Virus genome (UHGV): UHGV-0164601
Reading direction: 5' to 3' (one strand)
Length of the DNA stretch: 40,804 nt
DNA from: a virus
Shown: positions 5,026 through 34,231 of the stretch, in pieces
Layout of the letters: every line of letters starts with the position of its first letter
Position numbering within the stretch: the stretch's first letter is position 1
The notes under the pieces: model-generated
What the model saw: the letters and a program-made list of their open reading frames with translations, nothing else
The model's database searches: none
Told to the model about the DNA's origin: nothing
Program-made: the position numbers and the translations under genes

Positions 5026-5040
5026 TTACCGTTGAGGTAA
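5026..5040. promoter_or_regulatory. Operator-like palindrome TTACC-GTTGA-GGTAA overlapping the predicted start of the leftward early transcript
   Basis: Perfect 5-bp inverted half-sites with 5-bp spacer; same motif recurs at more than 10 operon starts. Confidence 0.55.
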
Positions 5041-5159: not shown

Positions 5160-5744
5160 TTATTGTTTGTTTTTTTCGTTCTGGTTGATGACAAATTCAA
5201 TGTAACTTTCGATCTTTGCTTTCTCGGTTTCGGGTAACAATGCGTAGCGCGAGCGATCATAGTTGATGGTCGCAGGGTCGTGCGGGTGAATCAGTAATTC
5301 ATAGCCGTGACGCCCGAATGCGGATGCAACATTCTCCAGGGTGGAAATGGAAACGCTGACCTCATTGTTTAACAGGCGGCTGATTGTCACCTGGGCGACG
5401 CCGGATGCGCGGTGAAGTTTTCCCTGTGTTGAAAGGTCGCGGCTTTCGCTCATCCAGCGTTCCAGGTTGTGAGCCGCCAGCTGGCCAATGTCGCTTGGGC
5501 CGACAGGCTGAAAACCTTCCTGAGAAAGCGAGCGATCGATATCAAGCCAGTTACGGGGTTTATTGGCGGCAGCTTCAATTTTTCGCGCAACCTGATCGCC
5601 GATAACCTTCTTACCAAGAGCCCAGCGGTTTACCAGATTTGCCTGAGTTCCAAGTTTTTCAGCCATCCGCGTCTGAACACCATTGAATTCACGGTCGATC
5701 AAGTCGTTGAGATTTTGCCTGCGGACGTCCTGGATACTTTTCAT
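5160..5744 (-). CDS. Prophage repressor, double helix-turn-helix, no LexA-like S24 peptidase domain
   Basis: N-terminal XRE-type HTH (QTRMAEKLGTQANLVNRWALGKKVIGDQVARKIE) and a second HTH-like segment (VAQVTISRLLNNEVSVSISTLENVASAFG); divergent from a Cro-like gene; no Ser-Lys autocleavage module seen. Confidence 0.65.
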   Translation of the reverse strand: MKSIQDVRRQNLNDLIDREFNGVQTRMAEKLGTQANLVNRWALGKKVIGDQVARKIEAAANKPRNWLDIDRSLSQEGFQPVGPSDIGQLAAHNLERWMSESRDLSTQGKLHRASGVAQVTISRLLNNEVSVSISTLENVASAFGRHGYELLIHPHDPATINYDRSRYALLPETEKAKIESYIEFVINQNEKNKQ

Positions 5745-5898: not shown

Positions 5899-6129
5899 AT
5901 GAGCGATAACGGACATTTCGATTTCAAAAAGCACTGGCTTGCACTTACTCCGGATGAGCGTGAAGCCTTCGCACAGGAAGCCGGAACGACGAGTCACTAT
6001 ATCCAGACTCACTTAACAGGTAAGCGCAAAATGCCAGGTAAAGTATTGATGAATGGGCTTTTTAAAGCCTGTAAAACAAGACAATGGCTGCGCTCAAAAG
6101 CAGAACTGGCATACTTCTTCTACTCATGA
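5899..6129 (+). CDS. Cro-like small HTH regulator
   Basis: 76-aa protein divergently transcribed from the repressor; HTH-like segment EAFAQEAGTTSHYIQTHLTGKRKMP; followed by a terminator. Confidence 0.5.
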   Translation: MSDNGHFDFKKHWLALTPDEREAFAQEAGTTSHYIQTHLTGKRKMPGKVLMNGLFKACKTRQWLRSKAELAYFFYS

Positions 6130-14523: not shown

Positions 14524-14600
14524 TGGCGTGGCATGCAGGATTCGAACCTGCGACCAACCGCTTAGAAGGCGGTTGCTCTGTCCAACTGAGCTAATGCCAC
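14524..14600 (-). tRNA. tRNA-Arg, anticodon UCU (decodes AGA), phage-internal
   Basis: 77-nt cloverleaf read from the reverse complement: acceptor GTGGCAT/ATGCCAC, D-arm GCTC/GAGC, anticodon stem ACCGC/GCGGT with loop CTTCTAA, T-arm GCAGG-TTCGAAT-CCTGC, discriminator G, encoded CCA. Confidence 0.85.
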
Positions 14601-31782: not shown

Positions 31783-31950
31783 CTATTTGGAGCGAAATGC
31801 CGCCTTGAAGTCGCTGAAAGATGTTCCTGTCTGGTAAACCATATCCTTGTCGCGCTCTTTGCTTGCGCGGCCAAGCATAACTTTTCCAATGACATCCCAG
31901 CATTGCTTGGCTTGTTCATTGTGCTGAGTACGATTTTTCAACGCTGTCAT
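31783..31950 (-). CDS. Hypothetical small protein (55 aa), proximal gene of the two-gene cassette
   Basis: Not in the ORF track (<60 aa); ATG 31950 preceded by AGGAGG (31957-31962); MTALKNRTQHNEQAKQCWDVIGKVMLGRASKERDKDMVYQTGTSFSDFKAAFRSK. Confidence 0.45.
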   Translation of the reverse strand: MTALKNRTQHNEQAKQCWDVIGKVMLGRASKERDKDMVYQTGTSFSDFKAAFRSK

Positions 31951-32050: not shown

Positions 32051-32737
32051 TCAGAAGAACCCTGCCTTGTCGTTGATGTACTCCGCGTGCGTCTGGATAT
32101 CACGCAGGCATTTGCTCACACCGACGATGTAGCAGAACATGGTGGTCAGTTCCGCCGCCGCGCCCGATACATCATGCCCGTCGTCCTGCAACTGATTCAG
32201 CAGATTCATCAGCAATGAGTTCTCCGTCAGGCCGAGAACACCCGACGGCGAATGAATCAGACTGCGGTAGCCTGGCTTCAGTGGGGCACTGTAGGTTTTG
32301 TTCTCTATCTTCATCGCCTGCATTACTGCTGACGCCGTGGCGTTGGCTACCTGGTCGGCAACCATCTTTATGCGCTCTTCCTGCGGGAGCGAGTTTTTAA
32401 TGTAGCTTCCGGTGCGGCGGATCTGAGGAAGAACCTCACCTGTAACCCATTTGCGAAAGCGGTAGGGGATAGTGCCTGGTGTCACTGCGTCGCGGCAGCG
32501 GAGGATCAGTGTGTAGAGGCCTGACTCGTTGATAATATTGGTTTCGCCTTGACGGCCTAAGTTAAATTTAGCCCTTTCATCATCATCAAGAGATTTTATT
32601 GACATAGTGGGGTTTGTCAGTTGAAGAGCTTTAATAACGTCTTTGGCAACAAACCAAGGATTTCCATCAATAACAATGGCTCGAATGGTTGCTTCTGATT
32701 CAAAATGAAAAACAGATGGGGTTACGTTAGCAGTCAT
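32051..32737 (-). CDS. Phage antirepressor (BRO-N domain with KilA-C/Ant-type C-terminal domain)
   Basis: N-terminal FHFESEATIRAIVIDGNPWFVAKDVIKALQL...ESGLYTLILRCRDA is a typical BRO-N motif; start at ATG 32737 (AAGGTG upstream) rather than the ORF-track start 32890, which would run through the leader hairpin. Confidence 0.75.
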   Translation of the reverse strand: MTANVTPSVFHFESEATIRAIVIDGNPWFVAKDVIKALQLTNPTMSIKSLDDDERAKFNLGRQGETNIINESGLYTLILRCRDAVTPGTIPYRFRKWVTGEVLPQIRRTGSYIKNSLPQEERIKMVADQVANATASAVMQAMKIENKTYSAPLKPGYRSLIHSPSGVLGLTENSLLMNLLNQLQDDGHDVSGAAAELTTMFCYIVGVSKCLRDIQTHAEYINDKAGFF

Positions 32738-32890
32738 AGTGATCACCTTTGTAGTTAGGTTAATCACCACTACCGACGCCAATCGGTTGGTGGTGAACTG
32801 TGCAGGGTTGGCGTAACCGGCTACAAAGGACCCGGCGCACCTTTCGGTGCCCCCACACAGCCCACCATAGAATAGGTGCGCTTTACACAT

Positions 32891-32909
32891 AAAAAAACCG
32901 CTTATGCGG
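32891..32909 (-). terminator. Weak terminator/attenuator-like hairpin in the antirepressor leader
   Basis: CCGC-TTAT-GCGG hairpin followed on the minus strand by TTTTTTT. Confidence 0.3.
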
Positions 32910-32924
32910 CATATGTGCCTCTGT

Positions 32925-32976
32925 AGTAATCCGGGACGCCAATCCCGGCACTGGATTTTGCCAGTGCCCGATTACT
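32925..32976. other. Structured element (nested inverted repeats) upstream of the antirepressor; candidate leader RNA or small RNA
   Basis: AGTAATCCGGG...CCCGATTACT outer stem enclosing hairpins CCGGGA-CGCCAA-TCCCGG and CACTGG-ATTTTG-CCAGTG. Confidence 0.3.
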
Positions 32977-33003
32977 ATGGCACAAGAGGAGTGCAATGTA
33001 AAT

Positions 33004-33018
33004 TTACCGTAAAGGTAA
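33004..33018. promoter_or_regulatory. Operator-like palindrome TTACC-GTAAA-GGTAA
   Basis: Perfect copy in the divergent region between the antirepressor and the membrane zinc-ribbon gene. Confidence 0.5.
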
Positions 33019-33096
33019 TGATAAGCGCGAAGAAACATTAAAATCAACCGTATTTGGTTGATTGCGTTTAACGCTTGATCACCTGAAAGCAAGATA

Positions 33097-33111
33097 TTAC
33101 CTTTAAGGTAA
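33097..33111. promoter_or_regulatory. Operator-like palindrome TTACC-TTTAA-GGTAA
   Basis: Perfect copy 21 bp upstream of ATG 33132; identical sequence to the site at 31963-31977. Confidence 0.5.
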
Positions 33112-33131
33112 TGTTATTGTGAGGAAAAGCA

Positions 33132-33860
33132 ATGGAAGTTTTCTGGATAGTTGTTGGTGTGGTTGCGGTGATTATTTACGTTATCAACCAGAACAAGACT
33201 AAGATCTCTGATCGTACGGTCGTTAATCATAACAAAACGATAAAGACCGAAGATGGGGAGATAACGATTAATCGTACACAGGTGATAGAACACACCTCTA
33301 CTCAGTTTCAAAAAACTGGAGGTAATGCGCCTAATATTTCCGCACCTCCTGCTTATGATAGTGCGGTAATCCAGACATATTATAAACAGCAGGAGTTAGC
33401 AAAAGAGAGGCAACTGATTCAGCCAAAGCCGTTTACAGCTGAGATTCCACCTGGAGTGTCAACGCGTCCGGCATATCATGGAAGATTCCCTGGTGATGAC
33501 ATATCGTCTCAGTCATCTAAAAAAGCACCTCAGGCAATATCAGAGCCAGCAAGAATACCTTCTGTATCGCTGCCAAAAGAAGAATCAGCTAACAGAGTTT
33601 CAAGTGGTAGCAAGCAGTGCTTGCGATGCAGAATAAACCTTCCATATGAAAAATTCAGGAAATCGTCAAAAAATCCAGATGGATTGACTAAATGGTGTGC
33701 AAGGTGTCTCGATGGCCCAAAGAATACACGCCATATGAAGTGGTGCCCAATTTGTAATGTCCGCAGAAAACGAACCAGCTTTTACCCTAATAATCAAAAT
33801 GCGGACGGCTTAATGGCATGGTGCAAAACGTGCTGGGATGAGCACAAAGCGAAACGATAG
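33132..33860 (+). CDS. Membrane-anchored protein with duplicated CxxC-x22-WCxxC zinc-ribbon (rubredoxin-like) modules
   Basis: N-terminal hydrophobic helix FWIVVGVVAVIIYVI, Pro/Ser/Gln-rich linker, then CLRC...DGLTKWCARC and CPIC...DGLMAWCKTC repeats; GAGGA before ATG 33132. Confidence 0.6.
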   Translation: MEVFWIVVGVVAVIIYVINQNKTKISDRTVVNHNKTIKTEDGEITINRTQVIEHTSTQFQKTGGNAPNISAPPAYDSAVIQTYYKQQELAKERQLIQPKPFTAEIPPGVSTRPAYHGRFPGDDISSQSSKKAPQAISEPARIPSVSLPKEESANRVSSGSKQCLRCRINLPYEKFRKSSKNPDGLTKWCARCLDGPKNTRHMKWCPICNVRRKRTSFYPNNQNADGLMAWCKTCWDEHKAKR

Positions 33861-34159: not shown

Positions 34160-34179
34160 AACTGTATATTTATACAGTA
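34160..34179. promoter_or_regulatory. LexA (SOS) box
   Basis: AACTGTATATTTATACAGTA: CTGT-N8-ACAG with an AT-only spacer, 18 of 20 matches to the E. coli consensus TACTGTATATATATACAGTA; 20 bp upstream of ATG 34140. Confidence 0.65.
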
Positions 34180-34216: not shown

Positions 34217-34231
34217 TTACCCGAAAGGTAA
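34217..34231. promoter_or_regulatory. Operator-like palindrome TTACC-CGAAA-GGTAA
   Basis: Perfect copy between the SOS-box gene and the tailspike gene; 32 bp upstream of ATGTGGTT (34264-34271). Confidence 0.5.

Follow-up and report, generated by a model that had tools for sequence, protein, structure and literature searches.

The leader that precedes the antirepressor gene ant in the viral genome UHGV-0164601 is an already well-known two-RNA switch, made up of a C4 antisense RNA and an IsrK-type decoy RNA. The window refers here to the whole stretch of DNA that was analysed (40,804 nucleotides). With a probability of roughly 80%, we assign this leader to the RNA immunity cassettes of the P1 immI or Gifsy-1 IsrK type. 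Computation and comparison directly support the assignment of both RNAs to their families, the collinearity with P1, and the identification of the regulated gene, and they show exact complementarity as well as three-way covariation. The order on the minus strand is operator (33018-33004), sigma-70-like promoter, IsrK-type sRNA (32967-32891), C4 RNA (32872-32786), and the ATG of the BRO-N gene ant (32737). A first-pass annotation had proposed attenuator-type or small-RNA-based control of the antirepressor, and this proposal is borne out by isrK and C4 matches above the Rfam gathering scores and by an antisense loop complementary to the ant Shine-Dalgarno sequence.

The antirepressor gene and its two leader RNAs

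The regulated gene, ant (32051-32737, minus strand), encodes a 228-aa BRO-N antirepressor. Its previously suggested start at 32737 was reinforced by a Pfam Bro-N match on residues 18-104 (E 5e-20) and by the same PGAP (NCBI) start in a 99.7%-identical E. coli prophage, and the protein also matches phrog_130, "anti-repressor Ant" (E 5e-56). With ORF4 of phage vB_EcoP_ZX5, which likewise has the isrK/C4 cassette upstream, it shares 82% identity. According to the vB_EcoP_ZX5 paper, over-expression of ORF4 cut the prophage titre ~1000-fold, from 10^9 to 10^6 PFU/mL; this Ant homologue promotes lytic growth when over-expressed.

The IsrK-type sRNA spans 77 nt on the minus strand (32891-32967) and matches the full Rfam model RF01394, isrK Hfq-binding RNA (positions 1-77), with 76.8 bits against a gathering score of 50 (E 7e-15). 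It consists of hairpin 1 (32967-32948), hairpin 2 (32947-32932), a single-stranded linker, and a terminator hairpin with a U-run. The related c4-a1b1 model (RF03163) scores 45.1 bits at 32980-32928 (E 3.4e-10), 1.6 bits under its gathering score of 46.7, which was passed by four of 12 related loci; its architecture is present, namely a pair of hairpins ahead of a C4 RNA, with a1 in the loop of the second and b1 following directly on its 3' side. The decoy site a1 (UUGGCGU, 32936-32942, minus strand) occupies the loop of hairpin 2 and is complementary to a' of C4 (duplex -11.9 kcal/mol), while b1 (CUACAGAGG, 32918-32926, minus strand) lies in the linker and complements b' of C4, one of the pairs being G-U (-14.5 kcal/mol). 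The multi-stem structure described earlier at 32925-32976 thus resolves into hairpins 1 and 2 (32967-32932) and an outer GUAAUC/GAUUAC stem, and the latter is probably partly outside the transcript, its 5' arm lying upstream of the predicted transcription start.

At the 3' end of the sRNA, the hairpin and T-run noted before matches a minus-strand intrinsic terminator (GCCGC-AUAA-GCGGU plus U7, 32891-32910), with a 5-bp stem (32910-32897), a 4-nt loop, and seven U residues. At -7.1 kcal/mol, the hairpin has modest stability, in keeping with partial read-through, and transcription has to pass the terminator to reach ant. Read-through of the homologous Gifsy-1 terminator has been demonstrated (PMC4825925). 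A further helix, GCACAUA (32918-32912) with UAUGUGU (32891-32885), brackets the terminator and U-run (32885-32918, minus strand) and is formable only in the read-through RNA. Thirteen of 14 loci, P1 among them, are predicted to form it with differing sequences, and in the window it includes ATG 32890.

The C4 antisense RNA (32786-32872, minus strand; match span 87 nt) matches the full-length Rfam model RF01695 (positions 1-87) with 79.5 bits (gathering score 45, E 3.9e-14) and comprises a 17-bp closing stem, hairpin P2 with a GNRA loop, hairpin P3 with an 11-nt loop, and a single-stranded junction. When the RNA is folded in isolation, its minimum-free-energy structure (-45.2 kcal/mol) equals the family consensus, with b' displayed in the 11-nt loop and a' unpaired. 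The antisense element b' (CCUUUGUAG, 32821-32829, minus strand, P3 loop) is directed against the ant Shine-Dalgarno sequence: its reverse complement is identical to b2 (CUACAAAGG, 32746-32754, minus strand), which overlaps the Shine-Dalgarno AAGGUG (32749-32744) 8 nt before the ant ATG. The b'-b2 duplex has nine contiguous Watson-Crick pairs (-12.6 kcal/mol). Likewise, a' (ACGCCAA, 32808-32814, minus strand, 3' junction) has UUGGCGU as its reverse complement, which is the sequence of both a1 and a2. The a2 site (32776-32782, minus strand) lies 3 nt past C4, the spacing seen in P1, and is complementary to a' over seven contiguous Watson-Crick positions (-10.3 kcal/mol); it sits in the loop of a hairpin (-17.8 kcal/mol) for whose stem the 3' strand of the C4 closing helix is used a second time. 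When the leader is folded in full, the minimum-free-energy structure pairs the b'/a' region of C4 with hairpin 2 and the linker of IsrK. Where a single RNA of roughly 100 nt had been anticipated, the sequence models give two, the 77-nt IsrK and the 87-nt C4 match. The first-pass annotation had missed both the C4 RNA, which separates the terminator from the ATG, and its target sites a2 and b2.

Covariation of the pairing elements across loci

The tandem of isrK and C4 precedes an antirepressor-type gene in 13 of 13 related phage loci scanned, namely a phiV10-like phage, vB_EcoP_ZX5, Tyrion, a Klebsiella phage, APSE-2, four Stx-phage lineages, Gifsy-1, SfV, a Yersinia phage, and IdasGreatGrand. 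Pairing was analysed in 12 of these together with the window (13 loci in all). Eleven distinct b' sequences were found among the 13, as exemplified by phiV10 (CCUUUUAG) versus the window (CCUUUGUAG), and both b1 and b2 change along with b'. By comparing every b' with every target in a 13x13 cross-locus matrix, we found that the b1 of the same locus ranked first in 11 of 13 rows, the remaining two sharing the same b' type, and that the b2 of the same locus ranked first in 10 of 13. Mean duplex energies were -11.4 (b1) and -10.9 (b2) kcal/mol for own targets, versus -4.5 and -6.3 kcal/mol across loci. The a' element changes in concert with a1 and a2 in four loci (Klebsiella, Tyrion, APSE-2, and YYZ-2008). 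Given the hypervariability of b' among phages, we propose that the cassette may also set immunity specificity. Among 5,426 complete E. coli genomes, 941 (about one in six) contain the cassette.

These patterns bear directly on plain transcription attenuation, in which the in-leader terminator alone would set ant expression by regulated read-through and the RNA-RNA complementarity would be idle. A terminator does stand between promoter and ant, and Gifsy-1 IsrK supplied in trans lifted a transcriptional fusion 8-fold (PMC4825925). Such a mechanism is nonetheless very unlikely, as it leaves the three-way covariation of b'/b1/b2 and a'/a1/a2 unexplained and does not account for a C4 structure conserved at 79.5 bits. 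Moreover, no antiterminator helix in competition with the terminator stem was detected, and the conserved bracket helix encloses the terminator instead of competing with it.

A further question concerns the strand. Both strands of the region, whose folding the first-pass annotation had recommended, fold better than chance, with z = -3.3 (IsrK alone) and -4.6 (whole leader) on the minus strand and z = -4.9 on the plus strand. Fold energy alone does not choose between them, since the plus strand scores as well; the minus strand was chosen because of the Rfam matches, the U-run, and the G-U pairs. All significant Rfam matches in a scan of 32600-33200 are on the minus strand. The plus-strand value, with neither a promoter nor Rfam support, only mirrors the minus-strand structure.

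It may still be asked whether the structured region is coding, with Ant being a 279-aa protein started at ATG 32890, or whether it harbours a plus-strand regulator, either a start-stop mini-ORF or a cis-antisense RNA resembling P22 sar. An in-frame ORF does run from 32890 into ant, and the plus strand both folds well and holds AGAGGAG, 4 nt, and ATG-TAA at 32985-33001, as reported earlier. The extended Ant was rejected, however, because the Stx, Gifsy-1, and SfV loci have ATT or GTA in place of ATG 32890, because this triplet belongs to a covarying helix, and because both PGAP and phage annotators place the start at the equivalent of 32737; in addition, the BRO-N domain starts at residue 18 of the short form. 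On the plus strand, no promoter match was present in 32700-33130, and the start-stop element, although real as a sequence, is not conserved, being absent from the three closest operator-bearing relatives (L001, L002, and L012). Read on the opposite strand, this element spells the -35 hexamer and spacer of the promoter that faces ant, and it is a by-product of that sequence. We accordingly give the coding and plus-strand readings next to no probability.

Predicted operator and promoter of the cassette

The promoter-like sequence P(isrK) (32974-33002, minus strand) has a -35 hexamer TTTACA (33002-32997), a 17-nt spacer, and a TG-extended -10 hexamer CATAGT (32979-32974), with nine of 12 consensus matches and the TG present. 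Its -10 ends 7 nt before position 1 of the isrK model, and the predicted start (~32967) coincides with that position at the sequence level, a geometry that agrees with that of the Gifsy-1 promoter. The defining features of isrK, its own promoter directly upstream and a Rho-independent terminator at the 3' end, are hence both recognizable in the sequence. Five promoter-like sites occur in the region versus 4.8 in shuffles, with no excess, which places the P(isrK) call at consensus level.

Adjacent to this promoter is the operator palindrome TTACCGTAAAGGTAA (33004-33018, without strand assignment), which stops 1 bp short of the -35 hexamer and has its centre at about -44 from the predicted start. 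The palindrome proposed in the first-pass annotation was substantiated by the recurrence of TTACC-N5-GGTAA in the window (11 exact copies plus three with one mismatch, against a chance expectation of 0.63), a total of 14 that was reached in none of 100 shuffles. It is probably a binding site for the phage CI-like repressor: palindrome pairs (5026/5088 and 5800/5848) flank the HTH_3 repressor gene (5160-5744, minus strand), and a palindrome of this phage-wide family abuts the -35, which makes repressor binding here a candidate interaction. The same operator-to--35 layout was observed in L001, L002, and L012 and in P1 Oc4/P2c4. LexA control of ant was rejected, as CTGT-N8-ACAG is absent near P(isrK) and the only good box in the region lies 1.2 kb off, before another gene.

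An operator with its centre at about -44 could serve activation instead of repression. The CI-like repressor would then stimulate P(isrK) in the lysogen, as lambda CI does at PRM, and C4 and IsrK, made constitutively, would block ant mRNA from any superinfecting phage. Only one step of the main model (operator equals repression) is replaced in this reading, and the RNA mechanism is left untouched. P1 immI-type immunity requires c4 to be made in lysogens, which counts in its favour, as do the position of the operator, which ends 1 bp upstream of the -35 and overlaps neither the -10 nor the start, and the poor -35 hexamer (ATATAA) of the phiV10-like locus, a hint that a factor or the extended -10 is needed there. 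IsrK and STnc1160 are also highly expressed in Gifsy-1 lysogens, but the Gifsy-1 promoter has no such operator. The equivalent P1 operator, Oc4, is, by contrast, annotated as C1-controlled ("controls expression of c4"); other palindrome copies overlap -10/+1 positions, typical of repression; and a second promoter-like site (33047-33018) has a -10 that touches the operator. Activation through this site is thus possible but rather unlikely.

Proposed mechanism of antirepressor control

Homologous systems suggest the direction of each effect, the processing of C4, the read-through of the terminator, and the binding of the repressor at the operator. Transcription would begin near 32967, at a promoter abutted by the operator of the main phage repressor. 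The terminator at 32910-32891 would probably end most transcripts, yielding the 77-nt IsrK-type sRNA with the decoy sites a1 and b1, while the read-through RNA would run on across C4 into ant. C4 would work inside this precursor or once excised, and in P1 it is excised by RNase P. Release of a stable RNA of ~77 nt that represses antirepressor synthesis in trans is characteristic of the C4 family, and the processed STnc1160 species of Gifsy-1 lends indirect support to such a release in the window. Exposed in a hairpin loop, b' would pair with b2, on the ant Shine-Dalgarno sequence, and a', exposed in a single-stranded junction, with a2, 3 nt past C4; this pairing would block ribosome binding, and the antirepressor would stay off. 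IsrK, or a1b1, would compete for C4, in cis within the read-through RNA and in trans as free sRNA. As IsrK carries the same two target sequences and would compete for C4, a high ratio of IsrK to C4 should free the ant ribosome-binding site. That a1b1 competes with a2b2 is an idea attributed to Citron and Schuster. Against the main model count the sub-threshold c4-a1b1 score, the consensus-level promoter, the lack of icd and of orf45 coupling in the window, and an operator position that would also suit activation.

A different route to ant has been described for Gifsy-1, whose authors explain activation by the coupling of orf45 translation to anrP (PMC4825925). Transferred to the window, an orf45-like ORF in the C4 region would be translated, ant would be expressed by coupling only, and IsrK would open the ribosome-binding site of that ORF. 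The mechanism was shown for Gifsy-1 (PMC4825925), and the conserved AUGGUGGG at the C4 5' end, the start of orf45 in Gifsy-1, is present at 32868. The frame from AUG 32868 nevertheless opens 15 codons and stops at a UAG in the b' loop (~32823), so the coupling part cannot apply to the window. This frame ends >80 nt before the ant ATG, with no stop/start overlap, and b2 lies directly on the ant Shine-Dalgarno sequence; for orf45 itself, the Gifsy-1 paper noted that nucleotides are conserved while amino acids vary (PMC4825925). We rejected orf45-type coupling at this locus on the basis of the short frame, and the Gifsy-1-style reading as a whole is highly improbable here.

In phiV10- and epsilon15-like prophages, where the antirepressor drives lytic growth, the cassette likely acts as its post-transcriptional brake.

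Relation to known immunity systems

Element by element, the P1/P7 immI region (Oc4/P51 - a1 b1 - c4 - a2 b2 - icd - ant1/ant2) has the same layout as the window. The curated GenBank record of P1 shares order and spacing, with an operator (putative in the window) at the -35, a1, b1, c4, 3 nt, a2, 22 nt, b2, and a ribosome-binding site. In both, two hairpins are present of which the second bears a1 in its loop, b1 follows directly, a hairpin with a U-run comes next, and b2 lies ~21-22 nt past a2; the final output is an antirepressor in either case. P1 matches the same Rfam families, with isrK sub-threshold there at 35.1 bits. The two systems differ in their a' and b' sequences and in the phage that carries them, the window phage being a small integrated podovirus (Uetakevirus-like) and P1 a plasmid prophage. 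Furthermore, P1 represses ant indirectly, through icd translation and polarity, whereas the window has no icd and its ant ATG stands 8 nt past b2. Since icd is missing and b2 sits on the Shine-Dalgarno sequence of ant itself, control in the window should be direct translational repression.

The isrK-orf45-anrP region of Gifsy-1 (L008) contains the same two RNA families in the same order (isrK 595-671, C4 697-780), with an IsrK terminator that requires read-through as in the window. Compensatory mutants (G28A/C162U and G31A/C159U) proved the pairing of IsrK with "orf45" in Gifsy-1 (Hershko-Shalev et al. 2016, PMC4825925), and the two pairs, G28-C162 and G31-C159, map exactly onto a1-a' of the window. 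IsrK in trans raised anrP translation 139-fold (PMC4825925), and STnc1160, a processed RNA of ~80 nt, sits at the C4 position. In contrast to Gifsy-1, the window lacks the orf45 frame and its AUGA overlap with the antirepressor gene (15-codon ORF only) and has no antQ upstream, its promoter carries a putative phage-repressor operator that Gifsy-1 lacks, and the regulated protein is BRO-N rather than ORF6N. The window BRO-N protein is likewise unrelated to P1 Ant1 (KilAC/ANT domain), and no significant similarity was detected between the window Ant and either Gifsy-1 AnrP or P1 Ant1; the element in common is therefore the RNA cassette and not the gene.

The c4-a1b1 and C4 motifs of Weinberg et al. 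2010 (RF03163 and RF01695) share with the window the two covarying hairpins, a1 in the second loop, and b1 3' of it. The facultative third stem of c4-a1b1, in which bases upstream of hairpin 1 pair with the 3' side of hairpin 2, corresponds to the outer GTAATC/GATTAC repeat, and the P2 GNRA tetraloop of the C4 motif is found here as well. While the c4-a1b1 model falls 1.6 bits short, the isrK model, which adds the linker and the terminator, fits better.

Two further systems were compared. P4 CI RNA with seqA/seqC, named as a structural analogue by the Gifsy-1 authors (PMC4825925), resembles the window in that a processed leader RNA pairs with repeats up- and downstream in the same transcript. 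It belongs to a different RNA family and acts by premature transcription termination of replication genes, whereas occlusion of the antirepressor ribosome-binding site is proposed for the window; the Rfam scan of 32600-33200 returned no P4-type family at E <= 10. P22 immI (mnt-arc-ant, sar) also combines post-transcriptional antisense control of an antirepressor gene with a position beside the tailspike gene in a temperate podovirus. Its sar RNA, however, is encoded on the opposite strand across the ant start (cis-antisense), while the regulator in the window is on the same strand and upstream, and neither a promoter match in 32700-33130 nor an Rfam match above noise was found on the plus strand for a sar-type RNA. 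No Arc/Mnt-type family matched among the genes neighbouring ant. A 55-aa ORF located downstream of ant (31783-31950) matched nothing in Pfam and only a PHROG of unknown function, and it is accordingly not put forward as an Arc/Mnt-like small repressor.

In the literature that we found, IsrK and c4 are still handled as unrelated systems, the Uetakevirus papers mention neither C4 nor IsrK, and the vB_EcoP_ZX5 paper never uses the term sRNA. We lean towards the view that IsrK is not a separate kind of sRNA but the terminated a1b1 decoy of C4-type immunity cassettes generally, P1 included. If this is true, "orf45"/STnc1160 of Gifsy-1 would be a C4 RNA gene, and activation by IsrK would be anti-antisense titration of C4. 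The IsrK-C4 unit would then be a portable cassette that ends just before b2, with at least 11 b' types in a small sample, fused to unrelated antirepressor genes (BRO-N, ORF6N, icd/KilAC, and small ORFs). These findings provide a testable link between the P1 c4 and Salmonella IsrK literatures, and they reveal no new mechanism. In this phage, the cassette would also form one arm of a two-antirepressor design, the other being a LexA-box-controlled 85-aa protein that consists of the Ant C-terminal domain only.

With regard to annotation, the region should carry two RNA genes and their targets, and it is currently blank or covered by spurious ORFs. The labels encountered are a 279-aa ORF in the window, an "ash family protein" in vB_EcoP_ZX5, an "orf37 immunity region" in SfV, and hypothetical proteins in the Stx phages.

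RNA families and pairing elements in the ant leader

The leader of the antirepressor gene ant is encoded on the minus strand, flanked by the BRO-N gene (32051-32737) and a divergently oriented 242-aa ORF. An Rfam scan of the whole window at gathering thresholds returned three matches, two of them within this leader: isrK (RF01394; 32967-32891, minus strand; 76.8 bits, gathering score 50) and the C4 antisense RNA (RF01695; 32872-32786, minus strand; 79.5 bits, gathering score 45). A permissive scan of 32600-33200 added c4-a1b1 (RF03163, clan of C4) at 32980-32928, which at 45.1 bits falls slightly below its gathering score of 46.7, and gave no credible match on the plus strand. The first-pass annotation had proposed small-RNA and terminator control of the antirepressor from sequence features, and this proposal is supported by the two family matches, the terminator and an antisense loop on the ant Shine-Dalgarno. 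Its multi-stem structure (32925-32976) corresponds to the pair of hairpins at the 5' end of the IsrK-type RNA and its hairpin plus T-run (32891-32909) to the IsrK terminator; C4, located between that terminator and the ant ATG, was absent from its list.

All elements of the unit are on the minus strand. The IsrK-type RNA comprises hairpin 1 (32967-32948), hairpin 2 (32947-32932), whose loop holds the target copy a1 (UUGGCGU, 32942-32936), a linker containing the second copy b1 (CUACAGAGG, 32926-32918), and a terminator composed of a hairpin and U7 (32910-32891), which is modest at -7.1 kcal/mol. C4 is built from a 17-bp closing stem, a hairpin capped by GAAA and a second hairpin with an 11-nt loop carrying the pairing element b' (CCUUUGUAG, 32829-32821), while a' (ACGCCAA, 32814-32808) occupies its unpaired junction. 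C4 ends 3 nt before the downstream target a2 (UUGGCGU, 32782-32776), a2 ends 21 nt before b2 (CUACAAAGG, 32754-32746), and b2, which overlaps the ant Shine-Dalgarno (AAGGUG, 32749-32744), ends 8 nt before the ant ATG at 32737. Both a1 and a2 are exact reverse complements of a', b2 is the exact reverse complement of b', and the match of b1 to b' includes a single G-U pair. When the full read-through leader is folded, its minimum-free-energy structure (z = -4.6) pairs the b'/a' region of C4 with the IsrK linker and hairpin 2.

A further helix, possible in read-through RNA only, brackets the IsrK terminator hairpin and U-run (32885-32918, minus strand). Folding predicts it for 13 of 14 loci, with sequences that differ (GCACAUA/UAUGUGU in the window, GCGGACA/UGUCCGU at ~264-305 of the P1 locus, L014), and it might serve in RNA processing or stability. 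The ant start at 32737 given by the first-pass annotation was confirmed, with Pfam Bro-N covering residues 18-104 of the 228-aa product and PGAP placing the start identically in an E. coli prophage of 99.7% identity. A longer ORF of 279 aa, opening with the ATG at 32890, is not credible: the Stx, Gifsy-1 and SfV loci have ATT or GTA in place of this triplet, and it forms part of one strand of the terminator-bracketing helix.

Covariation and portability of the RNA unit

Matches to the leader were found in 235 phage records and in 941 of 5,426 complete E. coli genomes. Twelve diverse loci were selected (a phiV10-like phage, Tyrion, a Klebsiella phage, IdasGreatGrand, APSE-2, four Stx-phage lineages, Gifsy-1, SfV and a Yersinia phage), with vB_EcoP_ZX5 as a 13th locus in the cassette scan; the pairing analysis covered the window and the first 12 loci, 13 in all. 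In all 13 loci of the cassette scan (the 12 and vB_EcoP_ZX5) isrK is followed in tandem by C4, ~50-60 nt upstream of the first following gene. The b' loop takes 11 distinct sequences across the 13 loci of the pairing analysis, and b1 and b2 vary together with it, as illustrated by CCUUUUAG with CUAAAAGG, UUGAGUAG with CUACUCAA, and AUCAUGAUGA with UCAUCAUG(A). Likewise, a' covaries with a1 and a2 in the Klebsiella locus, the Tyrion locus, APSE-2 and YYZ-2008. In a 13x13 duplex-energy matrix, the C4 loop paired most strongly with the IsrK linker of the same locus in 11 of 13 rows and with the translation-initiation region of the same locus in 10 of 13, the remaining rows being near-ties or loci with a common b'. 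Mean duplex energies were -11.4 kcal/mol for the own linker and -10.9 kcal/mol for the own initiation region, against cross-locus values of -4.5 and -6.3 kcal/mol, respectively. This own-target preference and the covariation constitute strong comparative evidence that the C4 pairings are under selection. Taken together, the comparison and the sequence show that the leader holds two RNA genes belonging to known families, that an antisense loop complements the ant Shine-Dalgarno, that IsrK duplicates the target set, and that all three partners covary.

DNA likeness to the Stx and Gifsy-1 loci ends at ~32763, immediately before b2, and the proteins encoded downstream are unrelated: the window and its close relatives have BRO-N, Stx phages and Gifsy-1 have ORF6N, SfV and the Yersinia phage have small ORFs, and P1 has icd with a KilAC Ant. 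The RNA unit thus behaves like a portable cassette. Among the deposited records examined, none annotates the cassette as an RNA gene. Protein-coding genes are annotated over it, for example, as 'ash family protein' in vB_EcoP_ZX5 (L016 1027-1140) and 'orf37: immunity region' in SfV (L010 225-1061), and hypothetical proteins are placed over it in an Stx phage (L005 632-799) and the Klebsiella phage (L002 756-953).

Correspondence with P1 and Gifsy-1

The curated P1 record gives the order Oc4 (abutting the P2c4 -35), a1, b1, c4 (77 nt), a2, b2 and icd, with spacings of 3 nt from c4 to a2, 22 nt from a2 to b2 and 10 nt from b2 to icd; the window is collinear with it for every element. P1 itself gives a sub-threshold isrK match (L014 231-312; 35.1 bits, E 7e-6) because in P1, too, a hairpin and U-run come between the a1b1 hairpins and c4, and by sequence P1 may therefore also make an IsrK-like terminated leader RNA. 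In Gifsy-1, the IsrK mutants G28A and G31A were combined with compensatory C162U and C159U (Hershko-Shalev et al. 2016, PMC4825925). By indexing the Gifsy-1 locus (L008), we placed the former on a1 (U26-U32) and the latter on a' (A56-A62 of the C4 match, L008 697-780); the helix proven experimentally in Gifsy-1 is thus a1-a'. The Gifsy-1 'orf45' region and the processed STnc1160 (~80 nt) also coincide with C4. The Gifsy-1 paper likens its system to P4 CI/seqA, and the phrases 'c4 antisense' and 'phage P1' do not occur in it (PMC4825925). The APSE genome paper and a review from 2025 give IsrK and c4 as separate RNAs. The a1b1 two-hairpin motif with a facultative third stem was already described by Weinberg et al. 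2010, where a proposal of Citron and Schuster is quoted that a1b1 and a2b2 compete for c4. The leader element belongs to a family that is already described and very common, so there is little new in it; the one point that specialists might find useful, and that has been under-appreciated, is that IsrK is equivalent to the a1b1 decoy of C4 cassettes.

By analogy with P1 and Gifsy-1, C4 would occlude the Shine-Dalgarno and repress ant translation, and its sequestration by IsrK/a1b1 would lead to activation. Only transcripts passing the modest terminator would reach ant, C4 would probably be excised, and an operator-bound repressor would govern the whole unit. Control in the window would be simpler than in P1 or Gifsy-1, with no icd or orf45 interposed; the AUG at 32868, which corresponds to the orf45 start, begins a frame of just 15 codons whose stop falls within the b' loop. 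Support for the importance of Ant in these phages comes from vB_EcoP_ZX5, whose ORF4 is 82% identical to the window Ant and has the same cassette upstream, since ORF4 over-expression lowered the prophage titre from 10^9 to 10^6 PFU/mL (vB_EcoP_ZX5 paper).

Operators, promoter and neighbouring genes

The operator palindrome noted at 33004-33018 was borne out as TTACC-N5-GGTAA, present in the window in 11 exact and 3 one-mismatch copies (0.63 expected) at 5026, 5088, 5800, 5848, 8131, 8193, 11715, 11733, 14923, 31963, 33004, 33097, 34217 and 37842. Copies are spread phage-wide, also near the small-terminase ORF start and before several small genes around ant, in a layout like that of P1 C1. They lie on both sides (5026/5088 and 5800/5848) of a repressor gene (5160-5744, minus strand, 194 aa, HTH_3), which is followed by a divergent Cro-like gene (phrog_35; 5899-6129, plus strand); 33004-33018 is therefore most simply read as a predicted operator of the phage's main repressor. 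In this CI-like repressor HTH_3 spans residues 106-147, residues 21-61 give a weak YdaS-like HTH match below threshold, and the lack of a Pfam match to a LexA-type (S24) peptidase domain suggests induction via antirepressors and not RecA-mediated cleavage.

The operator ends 1 bp upstream of the -35 of a promoter-like site, P(isrK) (TTTACA, 17 nt, TG-extended CATAGT), whose expected start at ~32967 is position 1 of the isrK model. An operator likewise abuts the -35 in the phiV10-like, Klebsiella and Tyrion loci and in P1 (Oc4/P2c4). Centred near -44, it could conceivably activate instead of repress. The plus-strand start-stop element (AGAGGAG-TGCA-ATG-TAA) proposed in the first-pass annotation does exist, but it is the reverse complement of the P(isrK) -35 and spacer and is missing in the three operator-sharing relatives; we treat it as a by-product of the promoter sequence. 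Upstream of P(isrK), an 8-bp inverted repeat (AATCAACC-N6-GGTTGATT, 33042-33063) scores as terminator-like on the minus strand, and the -35 of a second promoter-like site (33047-33018) overlaps its 3' arm. The repeat may serve as an insulator or a second promoter.

The divergent 242-aa ORF (33132-33860, plus strand) matches phrog_6762 over its full length and combines a hydrophobic N-terminal segment with Cys-rich C-terminal repeats resembling endonuclease VII / Lar-like zinc ribbons; an exact operator copy (33097-33111) lies 20 nt before its start. An 85-aa ORF (34140-33883, minus strand) is 43% identical to the Ant C-terminal domain and has a full-length match to the stand-alone family phrog_450. 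A near-consensus LexA box (CTGTATATTTATACAG, 34162-34177) overlaps a TG-extended -10 ~25 nt upstream of this ORF, and an operator copy (34217-34231) is found just upstream of the box. From these features, the 85-aa ORF is a candidate SOS-inducible mini-antirepressor, which would give the phage a second antirepressor arm triggered by the SOS response. Mid-genome, at 14524-14600 on the minus strand, the phage also encodes a full-length tRNA-Arg (anticodon UCU).
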